From Candidatus Uhrbacteria bacterium (GTDB lineage: Bacteria > Patescibacteriota > Patescibacteriia > UBA9934 > GWF2-40-263), in contig JACRJU010000003.1 of the NCBI GenBank assembly GCA_016219925.1, positions 22,505-86,504 on the forward strand: 64,000 nt of DNA, in the 5' to 3' direction. Position numbers and translations under genes: made by a program. The notes beneath the pieces are model-generated. The model worked only from the letters and a program-made list of their open reading frames with translations, was not told the origin of the DNA and searched no databases. Below are positions 8,272 through 43,112 of this stretch, in pieces (within the stretch, counting starts at the first letter, position 1; every line of letters begins with the position of its first letter).

Positions 8272-8438
8272 ATTTTGCATGCGATGCAGAACAGGACGTG
8301 AACTCTGTCGGGGAGATCGTTACGAGATATCGTGGGCGGGTGGCATGAGAAGTTCTCTGTTGTGAGGAAACGAACAATAGAGAACTTCTCATGACAGGCC
8401 CCGCCAGATGCTTCACACTAAATACTGAGTAAAAGTGT

Positions 8439-15500: not shown

Positions 15501-18500
15501 TCAAACAAGAAGCCACAACGTATGATGACGAAGCATTCCCCGTTTATTTCATTCCTGCAAAAGCCAAGGCATGTACCGCTGAACAGGTGGGCTGTGATAG
15601 CTTCACGCGTTTAAGTGCTGCACAAGAAGGCGGCGAGCGCGTAGAAACTTATACGAATTTGCGCGCATGCGTGACGCCGGCGATGGCCGATGGTTCGGCC
15701 AACAATAAGACAACCGCGACGTTCTTCACATGGGAAGGATCAGACAATGCGGGCTATCAGTTACGCTCGTGGACGCTTCTTAAATCCAACATGCCGGACA
15801 ATCAGTCCATGGCGCAGCAATTGGCGGATGTTTCACTGACAGAGACCAATATCGGCCAGGCTCCCTGTACGAAGTGGCGAGTCAATGGTCCAAGCGAATT
15901 GATTTGTGAAGATTCCGTCGGAGGACATCTGAACGAGGTGGCGCACAACACGGTCTGCGACGCGCACGAAGATATTTTCACCAATCCAAATTGCCGCGAA
16001 TTTTTCGATACACAAGGAAAAGTTCATTATCGACTTTTTTCTGACACCGTCACCGTGAATGAGGAATGTGCCCCCTATCGAAAAGATACCTCCACACTTT
16101 CCGATTGCAATAATTCCGGGGGTTTTTGGGATGTCCAGACGGGTTTCTGCCGCTACTTCGGACTCTCGAGTGAAAGCAAGAGTTGTCCGGCCGCGGTGTC
16201 TGGTTGCCGTTCTTATACGGGTGGAACAGGCAGAAATTCCGCGACTTTGCTTTCAGAAACATTTGAGAGCGGGTCGTTTGTGGGATTCAAGCCGTATAAC
16301 GTTCAAGGGAATGCCTCATTGCTTATTAGTAATGAGTCTATTGCAACCGACGGACATTCCTTGCGCGTTGCGGTGAATAACGGCACCGCGGGAGTTTCAA
16401 CCACCCAGTACTACTTAAACAACGCAAACGCAAATGTTTCCTACGATCCAACCAGCGACGCGACAAAAGCCGCGACGTGTACGGCGTTTAACAATGGAGC
16501 ATTCGCACACAAAATCTCGCCAGCGGGTTGTGAGATTGATGCCGGCAACAATGGAAGTGTCGAATGTGTGGTCGGGCCCGGGGAGCACAGTTGCGGTCCG
16601 CTCGTGAATAAACTCGTTTCCGGCAAAACGTTCCTGCTTGAGTTCTGGGCAAAGGGCGATGGGAATCTGCGCGTGCGATTTGTCGGAAACGGCGGAGCCG
16701 TCGGCGGCGTTTCGAATAATCTTTCCGATCCATTCCCGCTTACAGCCGATTGGCGCGTGTATAAGCTCGGGCCACTGGATTCAAGTTCCATGAGCGCGAT
16801 CAACAAAGATAGCGTTCTGGTGTTTGATGCCGGTCCCGGAAAAACTTTTTATCTCGATAATCTCGTGCTGAAACAAGTGGAAGAAAACGTAACTATCGTG
16901 AAGGATTCCTGGGTCATTCCATCTACGTGCGACAGCACTCCCGCAGGTATCAACTCGCCGCAATACTATTTGGGTTGCCGCGCGTACAGCGATCAGATGG
17001 GCGCGGCTCATTCGTTGTATCGCTTCTCGCGGCTGTGTTCGGACAAGGTCGTGGCCTGTCAGGCCTTCTTCCAAACTCAACAGTCCAAATCTCCTTACAG
17101 CCGCGCCTACAATGTGCGGTGCGCCAAAGGGACAAACGGCGATTTATCCAAGCCCACAGTAGTCAATCAGGCGACAGCGTGTACGGTTGATAGCGTCGAG
17201 TACTGCACGATCGCAGCCGGCCGTTCGTTCTGCACGTTTGATTACGATGGGTTGTTTGGCGAACTCCTGCCGCGTCAAGGCGATTTTGGAATCGTCTATG
17301 GTCCGGAAACCGTGTTGACGCCTTCGGACCGCATTGTGTATTTCGTAAACGACGGTTCGAAAAACTGCGACTCTGGCCAAGCCGGATGTCAGGAAATGGG
17401 TAAACCAAAATACGCGCAGGATCAAAAGAAAGTTGACGGGTTTGAGAGCGTTTATTTCATCAACAATCCCGAGCAGTACGGACAGACCCTTTGTGACAAC
17501 GATGCGCTATTCTGTCAGGAATACGGCTCAACAAAGGACGGCAATTTCTATTTCAAAGATCCGCTCAAAAAGACGTGCGATTATCGGACGAGTGTAGAAA
17601 TTAACGGAAAGAAATATAGCGGTTGGTTCCGGACAGGGACATCGGAGTCTTGTTATCCGGGGTATGTGGTCGGGGGAGATCAAGCCGGCATCTGGAAAAA
17701 TGGAGATAGCTCTTATGATGGTTGGGTTGGAAGTTGTGATCAAAGCCAGGACCGTTGTACGGAATTCATCGATATTGTGGATACGGAAGGCGGCTTGAAA
17801 AAAGACGGCACCTCTTATTACTTCATCAACAACGATAAGTTGACCGAGGCGGGAACCGCAAGTCCAACGGCGTGCAAAGGACAGATAAGTCAGAAGCAGG
17901 GATGCGCGCTATTCAATAACCGTAGCCGTTCTGAACTGAATTACAACGCGAGCGTTTCCTATGTCCTTTCCACACATGCCGATGTCTTGCTCAATAAGGC
18001 GCCCAACGCGCTTGTTGATCCGGTGAGCTGTGCGCAGTTAAACGGCGGAGTGTATACCATTTCTGATACGCAGAAGGCTCTGCTCGGGCTTGAGGATTTA
18101 AATCCTGGGCAAGACGGGACGCAAGTGCCGCTGTGCAACACGCGATGTCAATATGTCACGTCATCTGATGATTCGATTCTTTCAAACATGGGCCAGTTCT
18201 ACCAGTCTTTCTCAGACCATGTCAGCTATCTGGAGCGCGCGTGTCTCATGGATTCCGATTGCCCCGCGCTTCAAACGAAAAACGGGCAAGTGGTGAAAGG
18301 ATCCTGCACGAAAGACTATGTTGATGATAACTACAGGCTTTCCAATGATTCCAACACCGTGTTGAAGGTGAACCGCGACCGCAGTTGTAGCGCGTGGCTG
18401 GCGTGCGACAGTTCTCGCACCAGTTTCAACGCACAGAGTAATAAGTATGAACCGATTTGTGATTCGATTAGCTTGTGCGTGAAGGGCGGGAACGTCGGAC

Positions 18501-21500
18501 AGAGTTCGGCGTGTACGCAGTGGGATCCTCGCGCGCCGGAGATTTTGACGAACTACGGTTATTCCAAGCGCGACGTGAACTGGAACGGGTATGAATTATC
18601 TGGGTATGCCATTCCTAATCAACTTCCGGTTGAGTTGTACGATCAGTTTAACGTCAATCCAGCAAAAGCGTGTACAAAAAATGGCGCGTTCGTGAAAAAG
18701 GACGGTTCAGCTTTGCCGGCGAGTGAAAGTCCGGTGGCCTGTGGCGATAATACAGAATGTAAGGGGGGCGGAGTCTGTCAGATAGCTTCGCAAGATTTTC
18801 GTTTGGTTTACAACGCCGGTTCGTGTGATTCTTCTGCGGGCAACGGCGGGGCGTGTCGGGTTGGGCGCTGTTCGATCACCCAAAACGCGTGTTCAAAAAA
18901 TGCGGATTGTTCCGGGGCTGGAAATACGTGTTTGACGGGCGCCTGTCAGGCGGTTGCGACCAAGAATTGTCAGAACGCCGACTGTTCGTGCACATCCGCA
19001 GACGCCAATAACAACAAGAAGGCCAATGCTTGCGAGAATGCGAAGACCGGCGCGAATAAAGACGCCTCTGTTTGCGACCCTGTTGCTGGCGTTTGTGTGG
19101 ATCATCTGACGACGGGGGCGGGTGCCGTAACGTGCGGCCCGGAGAACGCCTGTGTGGACGGCGCCAGCTGCATTGATTCCGCGACGACCGCCCACGGAGC
19201 TTGTTTCAACAATCAGTGCCTGACCAACATTAAGGATACGGACAAGAACGGCTTTGCCGATCCGATTCAAATCTCTTCCGCGCTTGGCCAGTCGTGTCGA
19301 GGATATCCTGAGGCGGATTCGCCATTTCCGTCCAAAGTGGTTGATCAGTGGAGTACGGCCAAAGAGAAACCCGAAAAAGGACTCGATATCAACACGTCTC
19401 TTAATCAGCTCAAGTCATGGTCAACGCCCTATACGTTCAAAACGGGATACGAGGATTCCAGAACATGCGCGGTTGATGCACAGGGGCATATCACAAACTG
19501 CGATTGCAGTTACGATAAAATTTCGTACGGCAAAGGAGCGATTACGCGTTACGAAAATGTCGGGGCATCGCCTAATGCCACGCAAGGATTCTGTTTAGGC
19601 GGCCCGCATGAAGGTTTGCACTGTGCGACAGATGAGGATTGTTCCGAAGGGGATAAGGACAAGGGAACCTGTCTGCGTTTGCAAAAACAGGATACGATTT
19701 TGGGCTGGAGTGGGTTCTGCATTGAAAAAGACTCCTCCATTCAAATCAACGCCAGCACAGATCCGGAGGATCGCGCGTGTTTGACGTGGCTTCCTGTTGA
19801 TCAGCTTTCTGGAGCGACGGATTTGTACGCGAAGTATACGAGTGCGGGGTTTGCTGTCGATCAAACGTTGTATTGTGCGGATATTCAGCCTTCCTATGAC
19901 GTAAAGACGACTGCTGTCGGTTGCGGAGAAATTAAGGGACCAGGGTATTGCGGTTGGGATCATGATGATGGGGTTGGCGATGCCAAAGATAATATCGGTG
20001 ACGACGATCCCATTATATTCTGTCCAGACGGATTTTTCGGCGTCATGACGATGTGCGATGAGCTTTCAGAGTCTGGCCATACGATCGCCAATAGTTCAGA
20101 CGGCGATTGCGAAGAAGGAGATAACGATTATCCGTATTTCTGCGTCCCCTATCAATCGAAAAAAACTGAAAACAATCAAACAACGGATTGTATTCCTCCG
20201 ACAGATGCGAATTGGCAAACGAGGGATAATTCTGGACACCCGACCTATCTGTATGTTGACGGTGGCACGTTTGAAACTAAATATAATACATACAAAAATT
20301 GCGTCGTGAAGGGAATTTCTCAAGAGCACATCAGTAAATATTTGTTTAAAGAATCAAACCCATCTCAAGTATCTGAAAACGGTCCGGGGAGTATTTACTA
20401 TGGTTTGACGTATAACTTTGACCAACACGCTTCGTGCAAGTCTCTCGTAGAAACTTCTACGAGCAAGCTTCAACCCGCTGGCAGTAAGAATGTCTATAAT
20501 GTGGCGTGGACGGATCGTTTATGGAAGGCCGGATATACGATTCAGCCGGACAATTCTCCAGAGTTTAGCTATCGATACGCGACATCTCCATCGCTTTTTG
20601 GGCGCGCGGTTCCCCTTGCGACATTGACGGAGAAGCCTGACCCTTCCGCCCCTGTGCTCTCCATGTGTCGCAAAGGTCAGTCAGAAAAGTTCCAAATTCG
20701 CAATCCGCAAAATCCTGATGAGTTTATCTGCGCGCAGCAACAAGATGGCTATCAGCTTAGTGCCGGCGATGCGAGGGGGTTTTATCAGGTTGCGCTTAAT
20801 AGCACCGGTTTTGCGCCGCCAGATGAAAAGTTTTGCAAGGACGGTGGTTGTGCATGTCCGACTAAAAAAACCGTTGAATGCAACTGGCAGAAAAATCCGC
20901 AAGTTCAGAACGATCCTGGACGTCCAGTGACTTGCGGCGACCGAAGGTGTTCTAATAACAACAACGTGGCGTGTGACAGCGAAGACGATTGTCCGAACTG
21001 GGATCCAAAGAGTCCACAGGCGTGCGGAATTGGTTTTCCAGCATGTCCAGCAGGTCAGAACTGTCATTCCCAAATTTGGGGAAATTCAGGAACCTGTTCT
21101 CCTGATTGTAATCCGCAGGGTCAAAGCGTGTGTATAGGCGGACCAAAAAATGAGGAGGCATGTCAGGATGATGGCTTCTGCCGCAACAATCAATGCTTAC
21201 AGGGTGAGTGCGTATCAACGCAACTTCTTCCCGGAGGGACTCCTTTGTCGAATCTTGAACCTCCAGAAAAAGCCAAAACCCGCTTGCAGCAACTTTTCGC
21301 GCTTTCGCTTAATCTTGTGACATTTAATGATGGACTGGTAAACAATCCCGGCGAGGCTGGAAATTCAACGGGGACGTTTAGTGATCCTAGTTCCATTGAT
21401 AAAGGCGCTGCGTGGTATTGGGATGCGCGTTCGCAAGGGGACATCACGGAAAAACCAACACCACCAAAAGTTATTTCGCTCGGCGCATGCGTAGGTTCGA

Positions 21501-22219
21501 AGTGTCGGGAAGGGAAAGAAGGAACGTTTACGGTCAATGACCAGGATTCGGGAAACATTGAGGGAAAGGTTTCGAAACGCGCGACTGTGAGTTTCTTTAC
21601 CTACGCCAACTCCAACCAGATGCCTATCCGCCAGATCGTGGTTGACTGGGGAGACGGGAAGAATTTCGGGGCAATGCCATGGCCGACGGACGCACAGACG
21701 GGTTCGATAGCTAAAGACAACTTTTATAAGAACCATCGAGGGGTGAATGCGTCGGGCCAGGAAATTTGTAGTTCGGCTCCCGATGAGTTTGGCAAAACGT
21801 TTGATGCGTGCAGTTCGAGCTTTGTCGTGTTCAACCATGATTACGTGTGCACGCATGCGGATATCGCCAATAAGCTGGATGGACGCGCGTGCAAGTACGC
21901 CTCCGACGGGCGTCTGCTTAATTCGCCGTGCACGGACGGGAAGCGATGTATTTATCAGCCGCGCGTGAACGTGCAGGATAACTGGGGTTGGTGCACGGGA
22001 TTCTGCAATGCCGGCGCTGATGGGACGAATGGGTGTTTTGGGGGGGATGAACAACCAGGCCAAAATGTTTATAACAACGAGTGCAATATTGATAAGTGTC
22101 CCAGCAAAGCGGAGGATGGAGCACAGGGCACAGCACCATGTCCTGATAAAACGGCAGGGACCGTGAATAATCCTTGGGTAAATTTTGACGGAACAGTTAT
22201 CATTACTCCGGAAGAGTAG
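12590..22219 (+). CDS. Giant (3209 aa) membrane-anchored, cysteine-rich extracellular protein with CBM4/9-like jelly-roll modules
   Basis: Uninterrupted 9.6-kb ORF with an N-terminal signal anchor (VVLFGFVLVIPIFLA) and hundreds of Cys in CxnC pairs. Two segments (about nt 14764-15060, NPSFEIDENTDGIPDHW...YTLSYFF; and about nt 16230-16890, FESGSFVGFKPYN...FLLEFWAKGDG...YLDNLVLKQ) carry the hallmark pattern of CBM4_9/galactose-binding-like carbohydrate-binding modules. The C-terminal region is Cys/Gly/Asn-rich. Confidence 0.75.
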   Translation: MNSDRKQFRRWVGAIGVVLFGFVLVIPIFLARPALAVGTEQTALAGAQAEVTCHSAPYAPPCIGQQIKDVATILGDRIVQPTFKIALVQGLLNISQFVVNRLAYEAALIVANGGPGQGSLFYKKSALQGFKEFGLEAAGEAVADLSDALNSSLGTKFDLCLPPGAGFTLGLQIGIAQKYQPQKPRCDINEVVNNWSSFVSDAYSTVTDPDKASHAILSKFAESLQPGRNELSASVKLNIELQKEVAEKKQAEITERTTEKPAVKDVKDPVTGKTKTPAKVAENDFLDKIKKAVTGETTQLKAQDLAGFGDAMSGLALTAASTFTNTLLSQLFNKIYKGLFDVKPDSKTSFNVEAVADQGQNPEQFSKLFATTPIATGDYNALTEFVVCPPQGVANRGLNNCVMDSNFLSAISRGNSGAPLTVQEAIDQGLISGSWPLISPSDLSKNQDPLCYTYGFCYGNLVKLRKARVLPIGWELAALNNKVSKPSSLQEIINNFNSCNSFGAIDGEHPFCHLVDPNWVLKYPDTQCRATVNGEIRLTALSPGRQSVCADAPSCLGEDGSGKCVEGYGYCVREKNVWRFRGDECPAQAAGCLALTNTQTNDRQAYTINTVDFSVCGQQNAGCQWYRTNKNLSTAGTPTLTDDTYEWLVAGENYNTTGPTDRGDDWKFDKNGTSTPRVSYVVNTPVRYSYEDRLYLTRAVQSCSQNDAGCSELIAGAGGSILNLIPNPSFEIDENTDGIPDHWLPQNLAANKIMIDSSKPAARGKNVLRLINVPNNAALVQRFDLQPNQFYTLSYFFASVAAINAPGTVRMQFSGPNGTPVSYSGLSISGCTVSNVFAGEIDSSVSATSDWQRTSCTFGVPSPASQLKLMIESPGVRYDGFQLEPREVASDFVEGIHIGNAQTQYTKVAPAYLKCTGATTDSAACNTYAQMCQAQDVGCNRYTPDNGDPSVPAIANDLDACPSECVGYDTFKQEATTYDDEAFPVYFIPAKAKACTAEQVGCDSFTRLSAAQEGGERVETYTNLRACVTPAMADGSANNKTTATFFTWEGSDNAGYQLRSWTLLKSNMPDNQSMAQQLADVSLTETNIGQAPCTKWRVNGPSELICEDSVGGHLNEVAHNTVCDAHEDIFTNPNCREFFDTQGKVHYRLFSDTVTVNEECAPYRKDTSTLSDCNNSGGFWDVQTGFCRYFGLSSESKSCPAAVSGCRSYTGGTGRNSATLLSETFESGSFVGFKPYNVQGNASLLISNESIATDGHSLRVAVNNGTAGVSTTQYYLNNANANVSYDPTSDATKAATCTAFNNGAFAHKISPAGCEIDAGNNGSVECVVGPGEHSCGPLVNKLVSGKTFLLEFWAKGDGNLRVRFVGNGGAVGGVSNNLSDPFPLTADWRVYKLGPLDSSSMSAINKDSVLVFDAGPGKTFYLDNLVLKQVEENVTIVKDSWVIPSTCDSTPAGINSPQYYLGCRAYSDQMGAAHSLYRFSRLCSDKVVACQAFFQTQQSKSPYSRAYNVRCAKGTNGDLSKPTVVNQATACTVDSVEYCTIAAGRSFCTFDYDGLFGELLPRQGDFGIVYGPETVLTPSDRIVYFVNDGSKNCDSGQAGCQEMGKPKYAQDQKKVDGFESVYFINNPEQYGQTLCDNDALFCQEYGSTKDGNFYFKDPLKKTCDYRTSVEINGKKYSGWFRTGTSESCYPGYVVGGDQAGIWKNGDSSYDGWVGSCDQSQDRCTEFIDIVDTEGGLKKDGTSYYFINNDKLTEAGTASPTACKGQISQKQGCALFNNRSRSELNYNASVSYVLSTHADVLLNKAPNALVDPVSCAQLNGGVYTISDTQKALLGLEDLNPGQDGTQVPLCNTRCQYVTSSDDSILSNMGQFYQSFSDHVSYLERACLMDSDCPALQTKNGQVVKGSCTKDYVDDNYRLSNDSNTVLKVNRDRSCSAWLACDSSRTSFNAQSNKYEPICDSISLCVKGGNVGQSSACTQWDPRAPEILTNYGYSKRDVNWNGYELSGYAIPNQLPVELYDQFNVNPAKACTKNGAFVKKDGSALPASESPVACGDNTECKGGGVCQIASQDFRLVYNAGSCDSSAGNGGACRVGRCSITQNACSKNADCSGAGNTCLTGACQAVATKNCQNADCSCTSADANNNKKANACENAKTGANKDASVCDPVAGVCVDHLTTGAGAVTCGPENACVDGASCIDSATTAHGACFNNQCLTNIKDTDKNGFADPIQISSALGQSCRGYPEADSPFPSKVVDQWSTAKEKPEKGLDINTSLNQLKSWSTPYTFKTGYEDSRTCAVDAQGHITNCDCSYDKISYGKGAITRYENVGASPNATQGFCLGGPHEGLHCATDEDCSEGDKDKGTCLRLQKQDTILGWSGFCIEKDSSIQINASTDPEDRACLTWLPVDQLSGATDLYAKYTSAGFAVDQTLYCADIQPSYDVKTTAVGCGEIKGPGYCGWDHDDGVGDAKDNIGDDDPIIFCPDGFFGVMTMCDELSESGHTIANSSDGDCEEGDNDYPYFCVPYQSKKTENNQTTDCIPPTDANWQTRDNSGHPTYLYVDGGTFETKYNTYKNCVVKGISQEHISKYLFKESNPSQVSENGPGSIYYGLTYNFDQHASCKSLVETSTSKLQPAGSKNVYNVAWTDRLWKAGYTIQPDNSPEFSYRYATSPSLFGRAVPLATLTEKPDPSAPVLSMCRKGQSEKFQIRNPQNPDEFICAQQQDGYQLSAGDARGFYQVALNSTGFAPPDEKFCKDGGCACPTKKTVECNWQKNPQVQNDPGRPVTCGDRRCSNNNNVACDSEDDCPNWDPKSPQACGIGFPACPAGQNCHSQIWGNSGTCSPDCNPQGQSVCIGGPKNEEACQDDGFCRNNQCLQGECVSTQLLPGGTPLSNLEPPEKAKTRLQQLFALSLNLVTFNDGLVNNPGEAGNSTGTFSDPSSIDKGAAWYWDARSQGDITEKPTPPKVISLGACVGSKCREGKEGTFTVNDQDSGNIEGKVSKRATVSFFTYANSNQMPIRQIVVDWGDGKNFGAMPWPTDAQTGSIAKDNFYKNHRGVNASGQEICSSAPDEFGKTFDACSSSFVVFNHDYVCTHADIANKLDGRACKYASDGRLLNSPCTDGKRCIYQPRVNVQDNWGWCTGFCNAGADGTNGCFGGDEQPGQNVYNNECNIDKCPSKAEDGAQGTAPCPDKTAGTVNNPWVNFDGTVIITPEE

Positions 22220-22245
22220 GAAAAGTTTGTCGGCACTTCGGCCCT

Positions 22246-22322
22246 CTGTCATCCTGAAGGAGTTTGTATCGACTGAAGGATCCCGAAGTGTATGGGATCC
22301 TTCGCTTCGCTCAGGATGACAG
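22246..22322. repeat. Palindromic repeat element (family GTCATCCTGARGGAG...CGACTGAAGGATCC / GGATCCTTCG...CTCAGGATGACAG), complete copy
   Basis: About 77-bp imperfect palindrome. The left arm CTGTCATCCTGAAGGAG...CGACTGAAGGATCC, a central CGAAGTGTATG, and the right arm GGATCCTTCGCTTCGCTCAGGATGACAG. Confidence 0.7.
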
Positions 22323-22356
22323 AGCGGTGTGTCATCCTGAAGGAGTCTTCGACTCC

Positions 22357-22396
22357 CCGTCATCCTGAAGGAGATTTAATCGACTGAAGGATCTCG
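22357..22396. repeat. Left arm of a palindromic repeat element split by the GIY-YIG gene
   Basis: CGTCATCCTGAAGGAGATTTAATCGACTGAAGGATCTCGCG; the matching right arm is at 22696-22735. Confidence 0.65.
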
Positions 22397-22399
22397 CGT

Positions 22400-22690
22400 A
22401 TGCGCGAGCATACCTATTACGTTTACATTATTACCAATCTTTCCAACACGGTTTTGTATATCGGGATGACCAGTGATCTCGCGCGCAGGATGGACGCACA
22501 CCAAAGAAAAATTGTTTCTGGATTCGCGTCAAAATACAACTGCCGAAAGTTGGTTTATTATGATGCGACTGATGACGTGATGTCTGCGATTGAACGAGAA
22601 AAAGAGTTAAAGGGTTGGGTGAGAAGAAAAAAGATTGCACTGATTGAGCAGATGAATCCACAATGGAGGGATTTGTCGGAGGATTTTTAA
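22400..22690 (+). CDS. GIY-YIG nuclease family protein (short stand-alone URI-domain endonuclease)
   Basis: 96 aa; YYVYIITN...LYIGMTSDLARRMDAHQ carries GIY(YVY)-YIG and the conserved Arg and Glu (EREKELKGW). The start codon lies inside a CTCGCG-TATG-CGCGAG hairpin at the centre of the palindromic repeat. Confidence 0.85.
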   Translation: MREHTYYVYIITNLSNTVLYIGMTSDLARRMDAHQRKIVSGFASKYNCRKLVYYDATDDVMSAIEREKELKGWVRRKKIALIEQMNPQWRDLSEDF

Positions 22691-22695
22691 ACCTG

Positions 22696-22735
22696 TGATC
22701 CTTCGGTCGGCTGTCGTCTCCCTCAGGATGACAGA
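22696..22735. repeat. Right arm of the palindromic repeat element split by the GIY-YIG gene
   Basis: GATCCTTCGGTCGGCTGTCGTCTCCCTCAGGATGACAGA mirrors the left arm at 22357-22396. Confidence 0.65.
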
Positions 22736-22797
22736 CGCTTCCGTCATCCCGACCGATGTTGCAACCCCTCGTCATCCTGAAGAAGTTTTTGACCCCC

Positions 22798-22872
22798 TGT
22801 CATCCTGAGGGAGTTTATATCGACTGAAGGATCCCGAGGTGTGTGGGATCCTTCGCTTCGTTCAGGATGACA
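22798..22872. repeat. Palindromic repeat element, second complete copy, followed by degenerate GATGACA half-sites to about 22915
   Basis: CTGTCATCCTGAGGGAGTTTATATCGACTGAAGGATCCCGAGGTGTGTGGGATCCTTCGCTTCGTTCAGGATGACAGAAG is near-identical to 22246-22322. Confidence 0.7.
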
Positions 22873-23019
22873 GAAGTTTCGCTTAGGATGACAGATGAGT
22901 AAGATGACAAGAAAATGACCGGGCAATAAAAAAACGCCCGGTCGTGTCGTACGAACCGAGCAGTTGTGCTCACTTGTCGAAGGGCGAGCGAAGGATCTTC
23001 ATATCGATGAGCTTCTGCT

Positions 23020-23634
23020 CTACTCGACCAGGGTGAGGACGAAGATGTCGTTTGGGTCTAGACCGATCAAGGTGATTGTCTTGAGGTCATCCGAGATGTT
23101 CCCGGAGTCCTTGCCGTTGTAGTAGACGAGGTTGCTTCCGTGAACCAGGACACCATCGTCCCAGAGACCGTATACGACCATCTTCACGCCTTTGTCTCCG
23201 ATCTTTGTCTCGACCTCGTACGTACCGTTTCCAAAGCGGTACAACCCCTTCGGAGCAAGCCCCCAGTCGCCGGGCTGGTTCCAGACCACCGTGGTGGTCT
23301 TTTTCGGATCGCCCGTGGCCGTCTTGGGCAGGATCAGGTGCTTGGGGCACCTGATCTGCACCGTGACTACGCCGGTGACGCTCGCCTCGCACGTGCTTAC
23401 GCTCGAGCAGGCGAGGTTCTCGTCGAAGTAGAAGTCTCCGACTAATGGCTTGCCGGTCAGGTCGTTCGGGGCGGTCGCAAGAACCAGCCCCGACTGGTTG
23501 GTGTTGTCGCCAGCATCGGCTCCGCAGCCTCCCTTCTTCTGGCAGTTCGCCAGGTCGCGGGCGGCCTGATCGTCGGTGCCGCACCCCATCGCAAGCGCGA
23601 GGGGCACGCAAAGGACGAGAATGCGCTGCATCAT
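23020..23634 (-). CDS. Secreted hypothetical protein (signal peptide, Cys-containing), high-GC island
   Basis: 204 aa; MMQRILVLCVPLALAMGCG signal sequence; GGAGAG RBS 5 nt upstream; about 65% GC against a background of about 52%. Confidence 0.55.
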   Translation of the reverse strand: MMQRILVLCVPLALAMGCGTDDQAARDLANCQKKGGCGADAGDNTNQSGLVLATAPNDLTGKPLVGDFYFDENLACSSVSTCEASVTGVVTVQIRCPKHLILPKTATGDPKKTTTVVWNQPGDWGLAPKGLYRFGNGTYEVETKIGDKGVKMVVYGLWDDGVLVHGSNLVYYNGKDSGNISDDLKTITLIGLDPNDIFVLTLVE

Positions 23635-23800
23635 CGTACTCTCCTATGCTTACCCCAGTAATGGGGGTCAACTTCATTTGACCCTATTTTTGTGATTTTG
23701 TCAAGCTTTCCGGCCATATCCTAGCCGTGCTATATTGACGGTGCGGGGAAAATAAGGTAAAAAATTCCCTCGCTCTTTCCAAGCGAGCTGGGAGGTTCGG

Positions 23801-24745
23801 ATGCGTTTTTCCACCCTGTTCTGCGCTATCGCGCTGTCCTTCGCGTCCGTGCCGGCCCGCGCGCTGTGCATCAAGGACGCCACCGTCACCGAGCTGATGG
23901 ACGCTGGCCGGAAGGCCGAGCAGGCCTTTAGCCTGGGCGACCTCAAGCACCTGCACAACCAGGCCACCCTCGCACGCGAGGAGATCATCCCGTGTCTCAA
24001 GACGCCGCTTGCCCCCAAGGAAGTGGCGGCCTTTCATCGGCTGATGGCTCTGGACGCGCTCACCCGCTACAACTTCAAGCGGGTAGTCAGCGAATATCAC
24101 GCCGCGCGCCGTCTCGATCCGGGATACATCATCCCGCCCGAGGTGGCCGAAGGTGATCACCCGCTCATCGGCTACTATGCCGACTCCGCCAACGTTCCCG
24201 ACGGTATGGCCGAGCCCGTGTTCGCCCCCGAGGGCGGCTACGTGCTGGTCGGCGGGGTTCGCAACGCTCCGCGCCTGTCGGAGACGCCGGTTGTCATCCA
24301 GGTCTACGGACCGGGAAACGTCTGGGTCGAGACGCGTTACTTCCTCCCCGGGGAGAAGCTCCCCACATGGGGGAAGAACCTGTTCGGCGTTTCGGCCAAG
24401 GACCTCGGCATCGACACCACGCCTCTGTGGCAGAAGCCGACGCCGTGGTACGTCTCGGCCGGCGTATCCGCCGCGCTTGCGGCGGTATTCTATGGCCTGG
24501 CCATGAGCGAAAAGTCGAAGTTCAACAATGTGGGGACCGCGGACAGCGAACTTGCGTCGCACCGCGACCGTGCCAACGGTTTCGGCGTCACCTCGCTGAC
24601 CACCGCAGGGATCGCCGTGATCCTCACTGGTGTCGGCGTGGGCGTTCAGATCCACTTCGGCGGCCAGGACAAACCTTCCATCGCGCCGTCGGCCATGGGG
24701 CTGATGAGTCTGCGCGGACCCTTTGCCACGGGGGTGGATCAATGA
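23801..24745 (+). CDS. Secreted/membrane hypothetical protein co-transcribed with a Ser/Thr kinase
   Basis: 314 aa with an N-terminal signal peptide and C-terminal TM helices; stop overlaps the kinase ATG (ATGA). Confidence 0.5.
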   Translation: MRFSTLFCAIALSFASVPARALCIKDATVTELMDAGRKAEQAFSLGDLKHLHNQATLAREEIIPCLKTPLAPKEVAAFHRLMALDALTRYNFKRVVSEYHAARRLDPGYIIPPEVAEGDHPLIGYYADSANVPDGMAEPVFAPEGGYVLVGGVRNAPRLSETPVVIQVYGPGNVWVETRYFLPGEKLPTWGKNLFGVSAKDLGIDTTPLWQKPTPWYVSAGVSAALAAVFYGLAMSEKSKFNNVGTADSELASHRDRANGFGVTSLTTAGIAVILTGVGVGVQIHFGGQDKPSIAPSAMGLMSLRGPFATGVDQ

Positions 24746-26580
24746 GCAGTCACCCCTCGATGGACATCGAAGCGATTCGGGCCGCATTTGCCGCGCACCG
24801 CGCCGGCCGCTTCCGCATCGACCACTTTGTCGGCAAGGGCGGCATGGGTACGGTATTCTCGGGATTCGATCGCGAGTTCGACCTGCCATGTGCCATCAAG
24901 GTCGTCAACCTTGAGATGCTCGAACGGCCGGACGTCCTCGCGCGGTTCATGTCCGAGGCGAGGATCATGCGCCGCATTCGTCACGGAGCGGTTGTGCAGG
25001 TCTACGATCTGGACCGTTTGCCCGGGGATCTGCCCTTCATCGTTCAGGAATGGATTGAGGGCGGGAGCCTGTCGGGCTACGTGACAAGTCACGGTCCTCT
25101 GTCGCCGGAGATGGCAATCAACGTCATGGTGATCGTCTGCACGGGCATCGAGGAGGCTCATGCCCAAGGCGTGATCCACCGCGACATCAAGGCCGACAAC
25201 ATCTTGCTCACTCCTGAGGGGTACCCCAAGGTCACCGACTTCGGGATCGCCATGATGGAAACCGGGCGCACCCGTCTCACTCAAGATGGAGCGGGCATGG
25301 GGACGCTCGGCCACATGGCGCCTGAACAGATGCAACAGGCGAAGGATGTGGACGAACGCGCCGATGTGCATGCGCTGGGCGTCACATTGTGGGAGATTCT
25401 GACGGGGCAGAAGCCGCCGCCGGGACTCTTCTTCAGCGTTTCGCTCGACTCCGATCCCTTCTTGCTCAACGGGGTTCCCGATGAACTTGTGGTGATCATC
25501 AAGCGCGCAACAGAGATCAGGCGTGAAGCACGCTACCAGAACGTGGCGGAACTGCGCCTCGATCTCGAGACGGCCCGTCCGTCCTTCAACCGGACAGGCA
25601 GGACACAGCTCACGCACGGCTCCGCGCTGGATTCGACAGTTTCCCAGCCAGCGCTTCCGGTGCCTTCGCCATCGAGCCTGCATCCTCCGACAACCACGCA
25701 GACCCCGCCTGTCGTGAATCCTGTCGCCATTGTGGCGCGCCGGATTTCTCGACCTTCGAGCGCACCGCCCGCTTCGTCTGCTGGTCAGGATGATGACCCC
25801 ATCGCTCTGGCAGACACGCACATGGGCGGTGACGGGCATCTCGCTGATGACGTCAGTGCTCCTCTCGAAGAGGTACAGCGCGCGCGTCGTCGTTCGCAGG
25901 TGCGCTTCGTCGGGATCGTCGCGGCCGCACTGTTCATCGGTGGTCTGGCCGCGTGGGCGTTCATGGGACGTCCTTCTCCGGATTCCACCATACCGGCGGT
26001 TAGCGTGCTTGAGCCCCAGCTGGAGCCCAAAGCAAGTCCTGCAACGCCAGTTCCACACGAGCCCGAGGCCACTGCGCTCCCGAGCACGCGCGCTAGTGTT
26101 GAACCGGCACCTGTCATCCCCACTGAACTGCCGACGAGTCCGACGACTCCGGTCGTTGAAAAGGCACCCATGGTCGAGCCGGTCGCTCCGCACGCGCCGG
26201 ATCGCACGGCCAAATACCTCGACGTGTTGGCGGATCACCACGGCAAACAGGGTAAGCCGATCAAGCCGATCAAGCCGGACAAGCATCACCGCGGCGCCAG
26301 TGTGGATGCTCAAGCTACTGGTCAAGTCAAAGCCTCCGAGCCTGACAACGCGCCAGTGCGCGTGAGTGTCTTTTTCCCAGAAGGCGATTCCATCACAGTC
26401 TGGCTGGTCGGGCCGTCTGGACGCCGGACGCTTCCGACAAGCGTCCCGCCCGGCATCTATAAGGTGGTCGGCGATTTCCCAAGCGGGGAACGCACGGCCA
26501 TCTCCGCGCTCACGATCGAAGCGGGCAAGCCGGTGAAGATCACCTGCATCCCGCAAGTCGTGAAGTGCCACGTCCGCTGA
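24742..26580 (+). CDS. Hanks-type Ser/Thr protein kinase, membrane-spanning, with Pro-rich linker and extracytoplasmic C-terminal domain
   Basis: GKGGMGTVF Gly-loop, AIKVV lysine, HRDIKADNILL catalytic loop, DFG, APE motifs. A TM segment (VGIVAAALFIGGLAAWAF) follows the Pro-rich region. The ORF track's upstream start at 24367 overlaps the preceding gene and is probably spurious. Confidence 0.8.
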   Translation: MSSHPSMDIEAIRAAFAAHRAGRFRIDHFVGKGGMGTVFSGFDREFDLPCAIKVVNLEMLERPDVLARFMSEARIMRRIRHGAVVQVYDLDRLPGDLPFIVQEWIEGGSLSGYVTSHGPLSPEMAINVMVIVCTGIEEAHAQGVIHRDIKADNILLTPEGYPKVTDFGIAMMETGRTRLTQDGAGMGTLGHMAPEQMQQAKDVDERADVHALGVTLWEILTGQKPPPGLFFSVSLDSDPFLLNGVPDELVVIIKRATEIRREARYQNVAELRLDLETARPSFNRTGRTQLTHGSALDSTVSQPALPVPSPSSLHPPTTTQTPPVVNPVAIVARRISRPSSAPPASSAGQDDDPIALADTHMGGDGHLADDVSAPLEEVQRARRRSQVRFVGIVAAALFIGGLAAWAFMGRPSPDSTIPAVSVLEPQLEPKASPATPVPHEPEATALPSTRASVEPAPVIPTELPTSPTTPVVEKAPMVEPVAPHAPDRTAKYLDVLADHHGKQGKPIKPIKPDKHHRGASVDAQATGQVKASEPDNAPVRVSVFFPEGDSITVWLVGPSGRRTLPTSVPPGIYKVVGDFPSGERTAISALTIEAGKPVKITCIPQVVKCHVR

Positions 26581-26608
26581 CGAGGGTCTCATTCCCTCGT
26601 TTTTTTGT
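26580..26608 (+). terminator. Rho-independent terminator after the kinase operon
   Basis: ACGAGGG-TCTCATT-CCCTCGT followed by TTTTTTT. Confidence 0.6.
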
Positions 26609-26655
26609 TGCAAAACCTGCGGCTTTGAGGCATCATTGGGGAGAACCATTCTCCT

Positions 26656-27933
26656 ATGCTCGACATCAAAATCTTGAGAGACGATCCGGAAAAAGTAAAA
26701 CTCGCTTGCAAAAACAAAAACGCGGACGTGGATATCGACCGCGTGTTGACGCTCGACAGCGAGCGCCGTCGTTTGCGTGGAGAAATTGATGAGCTTAATC
26801 AGGAGCGAAAGAAAGCGGCGCAGGCAAAGGACATCGAAGAGGGCAAGCGTCTTAAGGGGTATGGAAGTGAACTTGAGGCGCAGTTGAACGCGATTGAGAC
26901 AGAGTTCACGACGTTGATGCTTTCTATCCCGAACCTGCCAAGCGATGATACTCCAGTTGGCAAAGATGAAGCAGAAAATGTGGTGTTGCGAAATTGGGGG
27001 GAGCCGCCAGAGTTCGATTTTGTTCCAAAAGATCATCTGACGATCGGCAGTGCGCTTGGACTCATCGACAGCGAAAAGGCTGTGCAGGTTTCCGGGGTGC
27101 GTTTTACGTATCTCAAGGGCGCGGCCGTTCTGCTTCAGTACGCGTTGGCTCAATTGGCTTTTTCCGTTTTGACGGATCAAGACGAACTTCAGGCTATCAT
27201 CAAAAAAGCGAAGCTCTCCGTAAGCGCCAAACCGTTTACTCCGGTTGCGCCACCGCTCATGATTCGGCCTGATGTGTTTCAAAAGATGGCGCGTCTGGAA
27301 CCCAAAGAGGAGCGCTATTATATCCCATCCGACGACGCCTTTTTGATCGGAAGCGCGGAACATACTCTTGGGCCGCTGCACATGGGCGAGACGCTCAAAG
27401 AGGCCGAACTTCCAGCGCGTTACGTGGCATTCACACCAGCGTTTCGTCGCGAAGCCGGATCCTACGGCAAGGACACCAAAGGGATTTTGCGTCTGCATCA
27501 ATTTGATAAAGTTGAGATGGAATCGTTTAGCACTCCAGACAATGGTCTCGCCGAGCAGGATTTTTTTGTGGCTTTGCAAGAGCACTTCATGCAAACACTC
27601 GACCTTCCGTATCAAGTCGTAATGACATGTACAGGCGATCAAGGCGACCCCGACGCGCGCCATCTCGACATTGAGACGTGGATGCCGGGGCAGGGGAAGT
27701 ATCGAGAAACGCACTCGGCGGATTATATGACGGATTATCAAGCGCGTCGGCTCAACACGAAAGTGAAGCGCGCGGATGGCTCTTTGTCGTTCGTGCACAT
27801 GAATGATGCAACAGCTTTCGCGGTTGGACGAACCCTGATTGCTATTTTGGAAAATTACCAAAACGCAGATGGCAGTGTGACGGTGCCCGAGGCTCTTGCG
27901 GAACTGGTCGGTTTTGGACTGCTGACGGCGTAG
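26656..27933 (+). CDS. serS: Seryl-tRNA synthetase
   Basis: 425 aa; N-terminal coiled-coil arm; class II motifs (FRREAGS..GKDTKGILRLHQFDKVE, motif 3 GSAFAVGRTLIAILENYQ). Confidence 0.9.
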   Translation: MLDIKILRDDPEKVKLACKNKNADVDIDRVLTLDSERRRLRGEIDELNQERKKAAQAKDIEEGKRLKGYGSELEAQLNAIETEFTTLMLSIPNLPSDDTPVGKDEAENVVLRNWGEPPEFDFVPKDHLTIGSALGLIDSEKAVQVSGVRFTYLKGAAVLLQYALAQLAFSVLTDQDELQAIIKKAKLSVSAKPFTPVAPPLMIRPDVFQKMARLEPKEERYYIPSDDAFLIGSAEHTLGPLHMGETLKEAELPARYVAFTPAFRREAGSYGKDTKGILRLHQFDKVEMESFSTPDNGLAEQDFFVALQEHFMQTLDLPYQVVMTCTGDQGDPDARHLDIETWMPGQGKYRETHSADYMTDYQARRLNTKVKRADGSLSFVHMNDATAFAVGRTLIAILENYQNADGSVTVPEALAELVGFGLLTA

Positions 27934-27971
27934 TGTTATACACATTGCGACAATCGTTTTATAGAGAAAAG

Positions 27972-28000
27972 AAAAATGCGCGTTAACCTCGCGCATTTTT
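27972..28000. terminator. Bidirectional Rho-independent terminator after serS
   Basis: Perfect palindrome AAAAATGCGCG-TTAACCT-CGCGCATTTTT. Confidence 0.65.
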
Positions 28001-28379
28001 GATAGATAAATTTTGTTTATGATTTATAACAGTTTCCAATTTTTACGCTCATTTTAGCTAAAAAATGATTGACAGATAAGCTGTTTTTTGATGTGATGAT
28101 AACAGATCGCAACACACCGAACAGTTCTGTCTTGATCGAAGACGAAGTCGCAGATTATGTGACACACCCTTCAGAAACGGCAACACGGGTCTGTCGGTGC
28201 GATCCAAAACGATGCGCTGAATTGGGAGGCAGAGCATCGGACTCACCCACACGCATGGATTGTTCATCTGTGTGACATGAGTCAACACACTCGCGTCGGT
28301 GCGCGCAGGTCCTCGCGCATCCGGCGAGGAGGTTGACTCAATCTCCTCGTGGCGTTCTTTCAAAACAAGGAGAGCGATC

Positions 28380-30362
28380 ATGAGGTCCACCGGATTTGCG
28401 TTCGTGTACTTCATCCTGATGGTCATCGCTGGTTCGTGCGTGGCCCTGGCCACGTCGTGCGGCACGATCGAAGCGCAGATGGACAGCTCGGGCGTCTATG
28501 GCGACGTCGGCGGCGGTGGCGGACAGGTGGTCATGCATCTGCCGTTCTCCCGCGAGCTCTCGACCGAGTGCGTGCAGGGCGTGAACGGGGCTCACAGCCA
28601 CCGTAGCCGCTCCACGCACTTCGATCTGGACCTCGATACCTCAAACGTGGCCGACGAGCCGGTGTTCGCTCCGGTGTCCGGCATCGCGCGCGTGCACACC
28701 GAAGACCCGTCGCGCAACTTCGGCAACCACGTGAACATCGACAACGGCGACGGAACTTACGTCGTGTGCGCGCATCTGCGCATCGCGGTCGTCAAAGATG
28801 ACCAGGAAGTCGCGCAGGGCGAGCTGATCGGCTACGAAGGATGCACGAGTAACTGTACCGGCGATCATGTGCACATCGGTCTGCATCGTGGCGATGCGGG
28901 CAAGATGGCGCAGATGGGCGAGTCCATCCCGTCGGCGTTCTTCGTCGCCCGCGCCAGCAGCCCGCGCGGGTTTGCCGTTATCGAAGGCAAAGACTTCATG
29001 TGCGGCATCCGCGCCATGGGCGACGATCGCGACGGTCTGTTCTACAGCTCCGCGCTCGACACGCCTCTGTTCCATCCCAACGGCTCGCTCGTGAAGCTTG
29101 CGCTCGACCCGCGGGTGTATCGCATCGACAACGGTCTGGTGCGCCACATCGCAAACGAAGACGTGTTCCGCAGTTACAGCTACACCTTCGAAGATGTCGC
29201 TCTGATCTCCGATGAGGAGATGACTTGTTACGGGGAGGGGAGCGAGATCAGCGAGCACGGCATGGTCAACGCGGTCAATGGTCCGGATGGTGCGCTTTGG
29301 CTCGTAGTCGGCATGTGGGACAGCCCGGCTCGTTACCGCATCCGTATCCGTCAGCAGGGTTGGGAGCAGGTCGTGCGCTCTTGGGGACTCGAGTATGACG
29401 GCATGGATGTCCCCCTTTTCATCGATGTGACTCACGGGTACTGGGTGCATTGGAACGAACGCCCGGGGTATGCGAAGTTTCGCGATGGCACGCTCGTGAA
29501 GGAACGCCGACGCTCGGACATCTACGTCATCTCCGACGGGGTGGCCGTGCCGATCCGCGACTGGGAGACCTATCTCTTGCTCGGCTTTGCCGATCGGACG
29601 TTCCTGACGGTCGGGCCCGGAGTGGTCGCGCAGGTGATGGGATCGGTGGGAAGCTGTAACGGTTCGAGCTGGTGCTTGGATCGGGAGGCGGCGTTCATCT
29701 GCGCAGGAGGATTCGATGGTGAGCCTCCGGCTGACAACACCAAGCCGGGTCCCTCTTTGGATGAAGGCACCGCGCCGCAGGCGCATAGCCCACCGGACAA
29801 CTCCGTACCTCAAAACTCCAACATCCCCGCTCAAGACGACAACCGAGGCGGGACTCAAAATGATCCGTCCGCCGACCCGTCCGAGTCGACACCTCTCGCG
29901 CAGTCCTGCGAAGGCCGTGTGGGGTGCCTCATCGATGCTCGCGGTATCGGCATGGCGCAAACCCTTGCGCTTTCGGATCAGCTCTGGCTGGATCCTGCGA
30001 GCACGAGGTGGGACGCGTACCTGTACGGCTACGGGGACTGCTTCGACAGCTACCCCGACGGCCATCAAGTGATCCACTCCATCGGCGGCTTCTACCAGAT
30101 CGACTTCTCGAGCATCAATCGTTCGTGCACGATGCTCATGACCCTCATCTCCTCGATCGGAACGGACGGCTTGCCGCCCGATGAGCAGATGTCGAACTGG
30201 AATTGGTGGCAGAGCGAGACCTTGTGTCGTCCGGGCACCCCGATCTGCAACCTCATGAACAACGGAACTTCTTGGGAAGCGTGGCTGTTGTCGCTCGCGT
30301 GGGATCCGCAAACGGGTCTGACCGCAACCGGCAACGCGCTGACCAGCAACGCGCAACTCTAG
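28380..30362 (+). CDS. M23 family (LytM-like) metallopeptidase, secreted/lipoprotein-like, with about 450-aa C-terminal extension
   Basis: Start chosen at the ATG with an AGGAG RBS (the ORF track begins 81 nt earlier). Signal sequence FILMVIAGSCVALATSCG; HxxxD (HFDLD) and HxH (GDHVHIGLH) M23 motifs; about 64% GC against a background of about 50%, and the composition switches abruptly at the stop codon. Confidence 0.7.
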   Translation: MRSTGFAFVYFILMVIAGSCVALATSCGTIEAQMDSSGVYGDVGGGGGQVVMHLPFSRELSTECVQGVNGAHSHRSRSTHFDLDLDTSNVADEPVFAPVSGIARVHTEDPSRNFGNHVNIDNGDGTYVVCAHLRIAVVKDDQEVAQGELIGYEGCTSNCTGDHVHIGLHRGDAGKMAQMGESIPSAFFVARASSPRGFAVIEGKDFMCGIRAMGDDRDGLFYSSALDTPLFHPNGSLVKLALDPRVYRIDNGLVRHIANEDVFRSYSYTFEDVALISDEEMTCYGEGSEISEHGMVNAVNGPDGALWLVVGMWDSPARYRIRIRQQGWEQVVRSWGLEYDGMDVPLFIDVTHGYWVHWNERPGYAKFRDGTLVKERRRSDIYVISDGVAVPIRDWETYLLLGFADRTFLTVGPGVVAQVMGSVGSCNGSSWCLDREAAFICAGGFDGEPPADNTKPGPSLDEGTAPQAHSPPDNSVPQNSNIPAQDDNRGGTQNDPSADPSESTPLAQSCEGRVGCLIDARGIGMAQTLALSDQLWLDPASTRWDAYLYGYGDCFDSYPDGHQVIHSIGGFYQIDFSSINRSCTMLMTLISSIGTDGLPPDEQMSNWNWWQSETLCRPGTPICNLMNNGTSWEAWLLSLAWDPQTGLTATGNALTSNAQL

Positions 30363-41679: not shown

Positions 41680-41773
41680 TGGCGGAGAGGGAGGGATTCG
41701 AACCCTCGCGCCGGGAAAACCCCGACCTACAGGTTTAGCAAACCCGCCCCTTCAGCCTCTTGGGTACCTCTCC
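41680..41773 (-). tRNA. tRNA-Ser (GCT), type II with long variable arm
   Basis: The reverse complement gives GGAGAGG acceptor/CCTCTCC, anticodon loop TTTGCTAAA (GCT), a long variable arm, T-arm GGTTCGAATCC, and CCA encoded. Confidence 0.85.
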
Positions 41774-41882
41774 GTGTATAGAACATCCAAAATTTGCGCC
41801 AATTCGATGGCATCGACTTTGCATCAAATTTCGGATGTCCTTATCTTTAATTTCAATGAACTTCTAGAAAGGTGATTCTCTG

Positions 41883-41970
41883 TGGCGGAGGGGGTGGGGC
41901 TCGAACCCACAAGCCCTTGCGGGCGCTAGTTTTCAAGACTAGTTCCTTAACCAATTCGGAGCACCCCTCC
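41883..41970 (-). tRNA. tRNA-Ser (TGA), type II
   Basis: The reverse complement gives GGAGGGG...CTAGT-CTTGAAA-ACTAG (anticodon TGA), a variable arm, GGTTCGAGCCC T-arm, and CCA encoded. Confidence 0.85.
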
Positions 41971-41974
41971 GTGT

Positions 41975-42463: not shown

Positions 42464-42583
42464 TCTTTCGCCACCTCTCCCTGGCTGGACGTGGCCAGAG
42501 TACGTGATTTGCCGATTATCCGCAAGGGTTGTTCATGCGGTTTGTCTTGTGACCTCTTGTCGGGGATGCTAAAATAAAGCGGT

Positions 42584-43096: not shown

Positions 43097-43112
43097 CGAA
43101 ACATTATTTTTT

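Follow-up and report, generated by a model that had tools for sequence, protein, structure and literature searches.

A single-domain GIY-YIG nuclease gene of the Ssn family amid tagged hairpin repeats in a Candidatus Uhrbacteria genome

The ssn gene and its repeat cluster

We analyzed a 64-kb stretch of DNA (the window, whose numbering is used throughout) from contig JACRJU010000003.1 of Candidatus Uhrbacteria, a bacterium of the Candidate Phyla Radiation (CPR) that is host to the gene and repeats described here. Positions 22240–22920 lie between the stop codons of a 3209-aa open reading frame (ORF) (12590–22219, plus strand) and a 204-aa ORF (23020–23634, minus strand). This region holds one 96-aa ORF (22400–22690, plus strand), here called ssn, surrounded by copies of a single repeat. 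The gene encodes a GIY-YIG nuclease of the Ssn family and is the sole copy in the window. A sequence-only reading of the region had described a GIY-YIG gene flanked by inverted hairpin repeats, and this architecture is confirmed, with a repeat unit on either side of the ORF at a distance of 6 nt.

The Ssn family was described by Chenal et al. 2025 (Nat Commun 16:2388; PMC11893778) as GIY-YIG nucleases of a single domain whose cleavage is confined to single-stranded DNA (ssDNA) and whose genes are flanked by hairpin repeats. Its Neisseria member, SsnA, is a 94-aa single-domain GIY-YIG protein assigned to cd10448 (GIY-YIG_unchar_3), a family in CDD (PMC11893778). As SsnA reference we used a 94-aa ORF found by tblastn of a plasmid collection (L089:1489–1773, NZ_CP119140.1; L numbers are our handles for the sequences compared), taken as the SsnA ortholog because its length and its Y6/Y17/E64 numbering are the published ones and canonical NTS repeats lie on its flanks. 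The record itself is a 2.17-Mb N. gonorrhoeae chromosome filed as a plasmid. An ungapped alignment of the window protein with this ortholog covers 89 of its 96 residues at 46% identity (E 2e-27), which lies within the published criterion for homology (E < 1e-10, 75% coverage). Residues Y9, Y20 and E67 occupy the positions of Y6, Y17 and E64 in the SsnA ortholog, corresponding to the tyrosine of GIY, the tyrosine of YIG and the metal-binding glutamate, and this catalytic Tyr/Tyr/Glu set is invariant in 34 homologs. Homologs at 57–77% identity occur in many phyla.

The protein matches Pfam PF01541 (GIY-YIG) over residues 6–78 (E 1.5e-16) and carries no extra domain and no separate DNA-binding domain in its 96 residues. 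An AlphaFold2 model consists of one compact domain with the GIY-YIG fold (predicted local distance difference test, pLDDT, 94), and the best Foldseek matches to this model are the GIY-YIG domains of UPF0213 BH0048, Slx1 and the UvrC N-terminal domain. What the protein shares with UPF0213 and Slx1 is confined to the fold (Foldseek E values of 3e-4 for 1zg2 and ~1e-2 for Slx1); membership of UPF0213 (YhbQ/BH0048) or Slx1 was rejected, with a marginal phmmer E value of 0.19 to 1zg2 among solved structures.

The repeat is strongly over-represented in the window. The box GTCATCCTGA occurs exactly ten times against 0.10 expected, eight times at 22248–22871, once at 45596 (plus strand) and once at 57975 (minus strand). 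Searching the window for the 15-mer GTCATCCTGARGGAG, for which the sequence-only reading had proposed a genome-wide search, gave nine matches with at most two mismatches against 0.14 expected from shuffles, and the partner box of this 15-mer is similarly enriched. The repeating unit is an oriented element shorter than the 77-bp palindrome named in that reading, of the form YGTC-ATCCT-GA-(inner segment)-GA-AGGAT-C. Specifically, an unpaired YGTC tag is followed by a 5-bp stem (ATCCT/AGGAT) that starts with AT and is succeeded by a C. Inside the stem, two opposed GA dinucleotides form a tandem G.A mismatch in 5'-Y-GA-R-3' context, which encloses an inner segment of variable length that is itself a small hairpin. 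The inner helix measures 1–7 bp with a loop of 3–7 nt, and the inner segment defines a short type (GCGAAGC or ACGAAGC; the unit at 57959 has GCGCCAGC) and a long type (AGGAG...CGACT). All eight complete units in the window read YGTC-AT...AT-C.

Units are arranged as dimers, solo copies and partial copies (Table 1); the 64 kb contain two dimers and two solo units, distributed over three loci. The 77-bp palindromes are dimers, each composed of a long unit in plus orientation, a 13-nt spacer and a short unit in minus orientation. Three such palindromes had been proposed within 700 bp; two are intact (22247–22323 and 22798–22874, 91% identical over 87 nt), and the third pair is not the same dimer. 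As ssDNA, each intact palindrome folds with about -22 kcal/mol (z-scores of -6.2 and -6.7 on the two strands). The ORF-flanking pair, whose left arm ends at 22393 and whose right arm starts at 22697, consists of two long-type units in inverted orientation, each 6 nt from the ORF. The picture of a palindrome split at its center by the ORF is therefore right as to the symmetric flanks and wrong as to the dimer, since the right arm of this pair is long-type and that of the intact dimers is short-type. Likewise, the solo arms reported at two distant sites are complete units rather than half palindromes, in gaps whose flanking genes are confirmed by Pfam: recG (43536–45587) and radA (45637–46926) for one, the phosphohexomutase gene (56594–57958) and tyrS (57994–59208) for the other. 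The solo unit at 45596–45631 folds as ssDNA with -12.2 kcal/mol (z-score -3.95). Four 5' half-units, which have the tag and the 5' stem and lack the 3' stem, are stacked directly 5' of complete units, and the module made of a half-unit and the long unit upstream of ssn is 85% identical to 22771–22836.

Table 1 Repeat units, the ssn gene and paired homologs. Positions refer to the window, except in the last three rows, which give positions in the homolog loci named.
Feature	Position	Strand	Evidence
Gene-less dimer A: long unit 22248–22282 (+), 13-nt spacer CCGAAGTGTATGG, short unit 22296–22320 (-)	22247–22323
5' half-unit that abuts the next unit; carries the tag, the 5' stem and, as inner hairpin, GGAGTC/GACTCC, and lacks the 3' stem	22331–22358	+
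Long unit directly upstream of ssn; tail C 6 nt before the ATG	22359–22393	+
ssn gene, 96-aa single-domain GIY-YIG nuclease, Ssn family	22400–22690	+	ORF list, Pfam, SsnA alignment
Long unit, inverted, directly downstream of ssn; tail 6 nt past the stop codon	22697–22732	-
Two tandem 28-nt 5' half-units (22743–22770 and 22771–22798)	22743–22798	+
Gene-less dimer C: long unit 22799–22833 (+), 13-nt spacer CCGAGGTGTGTGG, short unit 22847–22871 (-)	22798–22874
5' half-unit TGTCATCCTAAGCGAAACTTC, stacked on the short unit of dimer C	22872–22892	-
Solo complete unit ATCCT-GA-GGCGGTC-GAAT-GACCGCC-GA-AGGAT, 49-nt gap between convergent recG and radA	45596–45631	+
Solo complete short unit, in the 35 nt that separate the phosphohexomutase gene from tyrS	57959–57984	-
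Paired ssn homologs, L055	4429–4713 and 5001–5282
Paired ssn homologs, L059	5001–5285 and 6206–6490
Paired ssn homologs, L064	2344–2601 and 2997–3254

The near-symmetric replacement of a 13-nt spacer by the ORF, within an inverted pair, is what would be expected of a free-standing homing endonuclease gene that had inserted into the center of a pre-existing palindrome serving as its double-strand target. NCBIfam returns nothing above cutoff for the protein, and its match to the group I intron endonuclease model TIGR01453, which would speak for such an origin, spans only 30 residues with a score of 20.3, where the cutoff is 56.05. An enzyme of the I-TevI/Seg type would have a C-terminal DNA-binding domain beyond the 96-aa catalytic domain, which is lacking here, and a group I intron or phage setting; a collection of 50,697 phage records contains no homolog. 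Characterized Ssn members spare duplex DNA (PMC11893778), the intact dimers combine other arm types than the ORF-flanking pair does, and in L002, L006 and L079 the gene lies between two whole dimers, not inside one. This origin is very improbable.

The start codon of ssn had been placed in a further hairpin, CTCGCG-TATG-CGCGAG. The sequence is present at 22394–22409 and is absent from the syntenic orthologs in L082, L085, L087 and L088, so we reject it as a functional feature; it is probably incidental.

Pairing of gene and hairpin among homologs

We read the flanks of 80 homolog loci from species-representative genomes of more than 15 phyla. Units were defined structurally as GTC, a 5-bp stem starting with A or T, and the stem complement followed by C within 75 nt; a looser definition (GTC with any 5-bp stem) was dropped, as it gave 125 matches against 106 in shuffles. 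Plus-oriented units lie within 150 nt upstream of the gene at 45 of the 80 loci, and minus-oriented, that is inverted, units within 150 nt downstream at 48. Either side is occupied at 59 loci (74%) and both sides at 34 (42%), where the shuffled density predicts about one locus by chance. The association of gene and repeat generalizes, and the fractions are near-identical to the published ones, in which 71% of Ssn homolog genes have a motif nearby and 42% have it on both sides (PMC11893778). The tail of the upstream unit precedes the start codon by a median of ~22 nt. Downstream, the stop codon and the unit are 0–3 nt apart or share 1 nt at 11 of 48 loci, and their distance does not exceed 8 nt at 16.

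The two halves of the stem covary. Gene-proximal sites with a GTCAT tag number 175; at 112 of them the site's own stem complement, followed by C, closes the hairpin, whereas closure by the stem complement of another locus reaches only 3.5 ± 1.7 (maximum 10 in 1000 permutations). The letters of the stem vary by lineage yet remain complementary (ATCCT, ATTCT, ATTCC, ATCCC, ATTGC, ATGCT, ATTTC and ATATC). The tandem G.A architecture of the window units is widespread, as this 'GA..GA' class makes up 68 of the 112 gene-proximal units (61%) at the 80 loci, with inner segments of 5–45 nt, a Y-GA-R context on both sides in ~93% of units, and GCGAAGC and GCGCAGC as the commonest inner segments.

Repeats also occur away from the gene, at 0.45 units per kb in distant flanks versus 0.19 per kb in shuffles. 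The long type, searched as an exact pattern, is found in at least 120 metagenome contigs, and two of those listed carry an Ssn homolog in the stretch fetched. Together with the solo units in the window, this agrees with the earlier proposal that the repeat family is dispersed. The short type occurs in at least 120 IMG/VR contigs classed as viral; none of those listed has an Ssn homolog. Within this set (L210–L329), some contigs have five to six short-type units (L285, L287).

The same repeats could be read as elements that act at the RNA level, such as terminators, stabilizers of mRNA or a cis-regulatory leader, whose proximity to a GIY-YIG gene would have no functional meaning. Units do sit in short intergenic gaps after genes, convergent pairs included, and GAAGGA in the 3' half of the upstream unit is 9 nt from the ATG, where it could serve as a ribosome-binding site. 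At 22285–22369 (minus strand) there is a match to the GA-cis RNA (RF02987), sub-threshold at 19.4 bits against a gathering score of 34.7. No Rfam family reaches the gathering threshold in the repeat cluster, the only such matches in the window being three tRNAs (41683–43275), or in 14 repeat-rich homolog loci; at a permissive threshold the cluster returned, besides GA-cis, only noise. A promoter and terminator scan around ssn gave nothing convincing and no terminator-like site. An RNA role would also have to accommodate an association that spans more than 15 phyla with covarying stems, and units that occur on both strands, symmetric about the gene. SsnA, moreover, does not bind the RNA version of its repeat (PMC11893778). 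We regard a purely RNA-level role as highly unlikely. The 3' hairpin of the GA-cis consensus has an architecture like that of the short unit (stem, GA, GC-GNRA-GC, GA, stem); a literature search on GA-cis yielded nothing useful.

The biochemistry of the family has been established for Neisseria SsnA. This enzyme binds the NTS hairpin repeat CGTCATTCCCGCGMAVGCGGGAATCYRG only as ssDNA and on that strand only, and cuts a few nt upstream of it, with no action on duplex DNA or RNA (PMC11893778). The three bases before the NTS palindrome and the C after it are critical, loop extensions are tolerated, and split half-sites work (PMC11893778). The variable inner insert of the window units agrees with this tolerance of loop extensions and with the working split half-sites.

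Family membership, flanking architecture and stem covariation lead us to conclude, with high confidence, that the ORF is an Ssn-family ssDNA-specific nuclease gene amid its cognate hairpin repeats, in membership as well as in class of mechanism. Homology and the conserved tag, stem start and tail C predict that the window protein would itself cleave next to these units. Four points weigh against this conclusion. Cleavage has been shown in the literature for the Neisseria and Wolbachia homologs, and is extended to the branch with G.A hairpins by homology and by the conserved tag, stem start and tail C. The published SRM search pattern, introduced below, fits none of the eight complete window units. 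According to Chenal et al. 2025, the biological role of Ssn is given for Neisseria only (PMC11893778). Finally, most single units of the cluster fold weakly in nearest-neighbor DNA folding, with non-significant energies of -1.2 to -3.7 kcal/mol. In DNA, tandem G.A pairs of the sheared kind are favored by the Y-GA-R context, and a well-known mini-hairpin of unusual stability is formed by d(GCGAAGC), from which it would follow that the nearest-neighbor model underrates the energies of single units.

In the mechanism we propose, an ssDNA state arising in replication, repair or DNA uptake would let the tagged strand fold, and Ssn would bind the hairpin and the tail C. Cleavage would then follow a few nt to the 5' side of the tag and be limited to the tagged strand, sparing duplex DNA and RNA. 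Motif-bearing ssDNA would be fragmented as a result, and recombination with incoming DNA modulated. By analogy with what RAYTs, the transposases associated with repetitive extragenic palindromic (REP) elements, are believed to do for the REP doublets termed REPINs, Ssn may also generate or maintain the repeat population. For the CPR bacterium such a role is a prediction, as would be any part in spreading the repeats.

Inheritance, mobility and derivation of the repeats

The closest homologs of ssn, at 71–77% identity, are all found directly after an orthologous giant gene in four lineages. The gene that follows is a ~203-aa minus-strand gene in three of the four and a 258-aa minus-strand gene in L088. 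Compared with the relative in L082, ssn is 77% identical and the neighboring genes 46–60%, with a nonsynonymous divergence (dN) of 0.14; synonymous divergence (dS) is saturated, so that only dN is considered. The complement of units around ssn differs among these syntenic relatives. By these comparisons, ssn behaves in this lineage as a resident of its fixed locus that is inherited vertically and, as RAYTs are, under strong constraint, while the repeats around it turn over. Retention of one locus across deep divergence, combined with strong purifying selection, argues for a host function and against a passing parasite.

These observations bear on whether the cassette of unit, ssn and inverted unit is an active autonomous mobile element, analogous to an insertion sequence (IS) or a REPtron, in which the GIY-YIG protein would be the transposase and the dimers would resemble miniature inverted-repeat transposable elements (MITEs) or REPINs. 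The hypothesis was also raised by Chenal et al. 2025 (PMC11893778), and the architecture of terminal inverted repeats fits it. Homologs at 60–68% identity are present in unrelated phyla, many of them on short contigs, second copies lie at most 1.2 kb apart in L055, L059 and L064, and there are copies on Rhizobiaceae and Sphingobium megaplasmids. In the window, mobility would explain why the leader and ATG of ssn cassettes can be aligned with the spacers in dimers A and C, as if the ORF had been deleted, why the module of half-unit and long unit occurs twice, once upstream of ssn and once at dimer C, and why half-units stack directionally (27 versus 4, see below). Yet ssn is present as a single copy in the window, and it holds the same syntenic position in relatives whose neighboring genes are only 46–60% identical. 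Target-site duplications and empty-versus-filled orthologous sites are both absent from the data, and the 50,697 phage records contain no match. We also know of no strand-transfer activity for the GIY-YIG domain, which we count against a transposase. On balance, an active mobile element is unlikely, if clearly less so than the homing or RNA-level accounts. The earlier suggestion that the protein mobilizes or maintains the repeats is accordingly still conjecture: what has been demonstrated for the family is strand-specific ssDNA cleavage beside a hairpin, and the gene occupies a fixed syntenic position.

Stacking of half-units is one-sided. Among 356 minimal units, 27 have a half-unit on the 5' side, from 14 sources, versus 4 on the 3' side. 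Stacked half-units share the orientation of the complete unit and have a pyrimidine-rich run at their end. Outside the window, such stacks are seen in L003, L014, L019, L025, L027, L042, L047, L050, L053, L058, L075, L077 and L087, and we found no mention of the arrangement in the text of the Ssn paper (Chenal et al. 2025). Removal of the ORF from the cassette collapses it onto the dimers, and the spacer of dimer A, CCGAAGTGTATGG, resembles the leader and ATG of related cassettes, CCCAAGTCTGTATG. Spacer likeness and half-unit stacking are suggestive of derivation, as hints that fall short of proof.

The dimers of other genomes vary in composition and placement. Many inverted dimers are heterodimers with an ATCCT stem in one arm and an ATTCT stem in the other, so that the arms are incompletely complementary; they were seen in gene flanks (L002, L006, L058, L059, L079) and in L100, L103, L105, L123–L125 and others. 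In L002, L006, L010, L053 and L079 a complete dimer stands on each side of the gene, the two being in direct orientation and their tags pointing towards the gene; in the window, by contrast, it lies within one inverted pair with the tails towards the gene. Paired Ssn homolog genes within ~1.2 kb are found at three loci, two from Acidobacteria and one from Rhizobium (Table 1).

Several features of the neighborhood were recorded alongside. The 3209-aa ORF that ends just ahead of the repeat cluster is cysteine-rich and has a hydrophobic N-terminal segment; in related contigs, too, ssn is preceded by an ortholog longer than 3000 aa, and the L085 ortholog has no Pfam family on record. Directly to the right of the cluster, the GC content rises from ~0.50 to 0.57–0.65 (window 23000–30000), over a stretch that encodes the 204-aa ORF, a 314-aa ORF, a Ser/Thr kinase, a seryl-tRNA synthetase and an M23 peptidase. 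An assembly chimera at this point was considered and rejected, as the 204-aa, 314-aa and kinase genes are syntenic after ssn in related contigs. Farther away, positions 8338–8408 form a long perfect hairpin, CATGAGAAGTTCTCT...AGAGAACTTCTCATG, enclosed in GGGCGGG...CCCCGCC. Read on the minus strand (TGTCATGAG...), it has G as its tail and was rejected as a member of the repeat family.

Relation to published repeat systems

This kind of system was published in March 2025, and the window is a further example from an unreported host group. The statement in the sequence-only reading that the association had not been formally described does not hold, as Chenal et al. 2025 reported the pairing of Ssn with its repeats, named SRM, together with the biochemistry and the IS-like architecture (PMC11893778). 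These authors likened NTS-ssnA-NTS to an insertion sequence and to REP/RAYT (PMC11893778), the same parallel that had been drawn from the window. In our literature search, theirs was the sole paper found that joins GIY-YIG with REP terminology.

The window system shares with Ssn/SRM a single-domain GIY-YIG protein of ~95 aa, YGTC-tagged, AT-stemmed and C-tailed repeats on both sides of the gene, and the same repeats scattered elsewhere. It differs in the hairpin, where a stem of 5 bp, a tandem G.A mismatch and an inner hairpin of variable length take the place of the continuous 8–9 bp of NTS. The published SRM search pattern, HGTCWYN(0-2)YYVSBRHN(0-5)WNVSBRGN(0-2)RNCYNB, is a search heuristic derived from 29 genomes, which does not define the family, and assumes a continuous stem. 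Our implementation, checked to match the canonical NTS, finds one SRM-pattern match in the window, at 53520–53547 inside a Clp ATPase gene. At the 80 homolog loci the pattern detects 11 units in 6 loci, or 7 of 80 loci by the 500-bp criterion of the paper.

Older work provides a second point of reference. Di Nocera et al. 2013 (BMC Genomics 14:522) defined CGTC-tagged REPs, including Neisseria dRS3 and Rickettsia RPE-4/6, by a tag, CGTC or TGTC, that stays unpaired, a stem with A-T and T-A as its first pairs in almost all cases, and a short tail. They are intergenic, mostly inverted dimers and often heterodimers left unexplained, and 'apparently lack a dedicated transposase' (Di Nocera 2013). 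The tag and the first two stem pairs (A-T, T-A) are found in all eight window units, which also share the short unpaired tail and the intergenic setting. The published elements have a continuous stem of 8–9 bp and a loop of 4–5 nt, unlike the window units. By sequence, this places the window units within the CGTC-tagged REP superfamily and apparently outside its four described families. The text of Chenal et al. 2025 does not cite Di Nocera 2013 and does not mention CPR bacteria (PMC11893778).

Resemblance to REP/REPIN-RAYT systems (Nunvar 2010; Bertels and Rainey 2011; Ton-Hoang 2012) extends to the tagged palindromic unit, the inverted doublets, the clusters like bacterial interspersed mosaic elements (BIMEs), the vertical inheritance of a gene that is present in one copy between repeats of its own, and an enzyme that recognizes an ssDNA hairpin. 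However, RAYTs are HUH Y1 (IS200-like) transposases paired with a GTAG tag, whereas the window has a GIY-YIG nuclease and a YGTC tag; the RAYT family has proven cut-and-rejoin chemistry, and for Ssn only cutting has been shown. The window system works like REP-RAYT and is not a member of it. The 'peel and paste' system of IS200/IS605 TnpA likewise uses subterminal ssDNA hairpins, acts on one strand and cleaves a few nt to one side; its fold and chemistry are different, and circular intermediates and strand transfer are not evidenced for the window system.

A bolder extension holds that Ssn is the missing enzyme of the whole CGTC/TGTC-tagged REP superfamily, which seeds or maintains the repeats and has the dimers as its non-autonomous derivatives. 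We advance it tentatively, as a possibility with the odds against it. If it were right, gene-less inverted dimers would be ORF-deleted ssn cassettes, analogous to REPINs, and one-sided stacks of half-units would be footprints of copying or repair initiated by Ssn. The tandem G.A class would then be the main partner of Ssn in CPR, Firmicutes, Chloroflexi and Acidobacteria.

To the published family the present locus adds a CPR host, a hairpin class outside the SRM pattern, a fixed syntenic position and stacked 5' half-units. With the SRM pattern locating repeats at 7 of 80 loci and the structural definition at 59 of 80, the reach of the system has probably been underestimated. Work on Ssn is now linked to the older classification of the 'orphan' CGTC-tagged REPs, and each new pair of Ssn and hairpin is a potential reagent with which ssDNA could be cut at specific sites.

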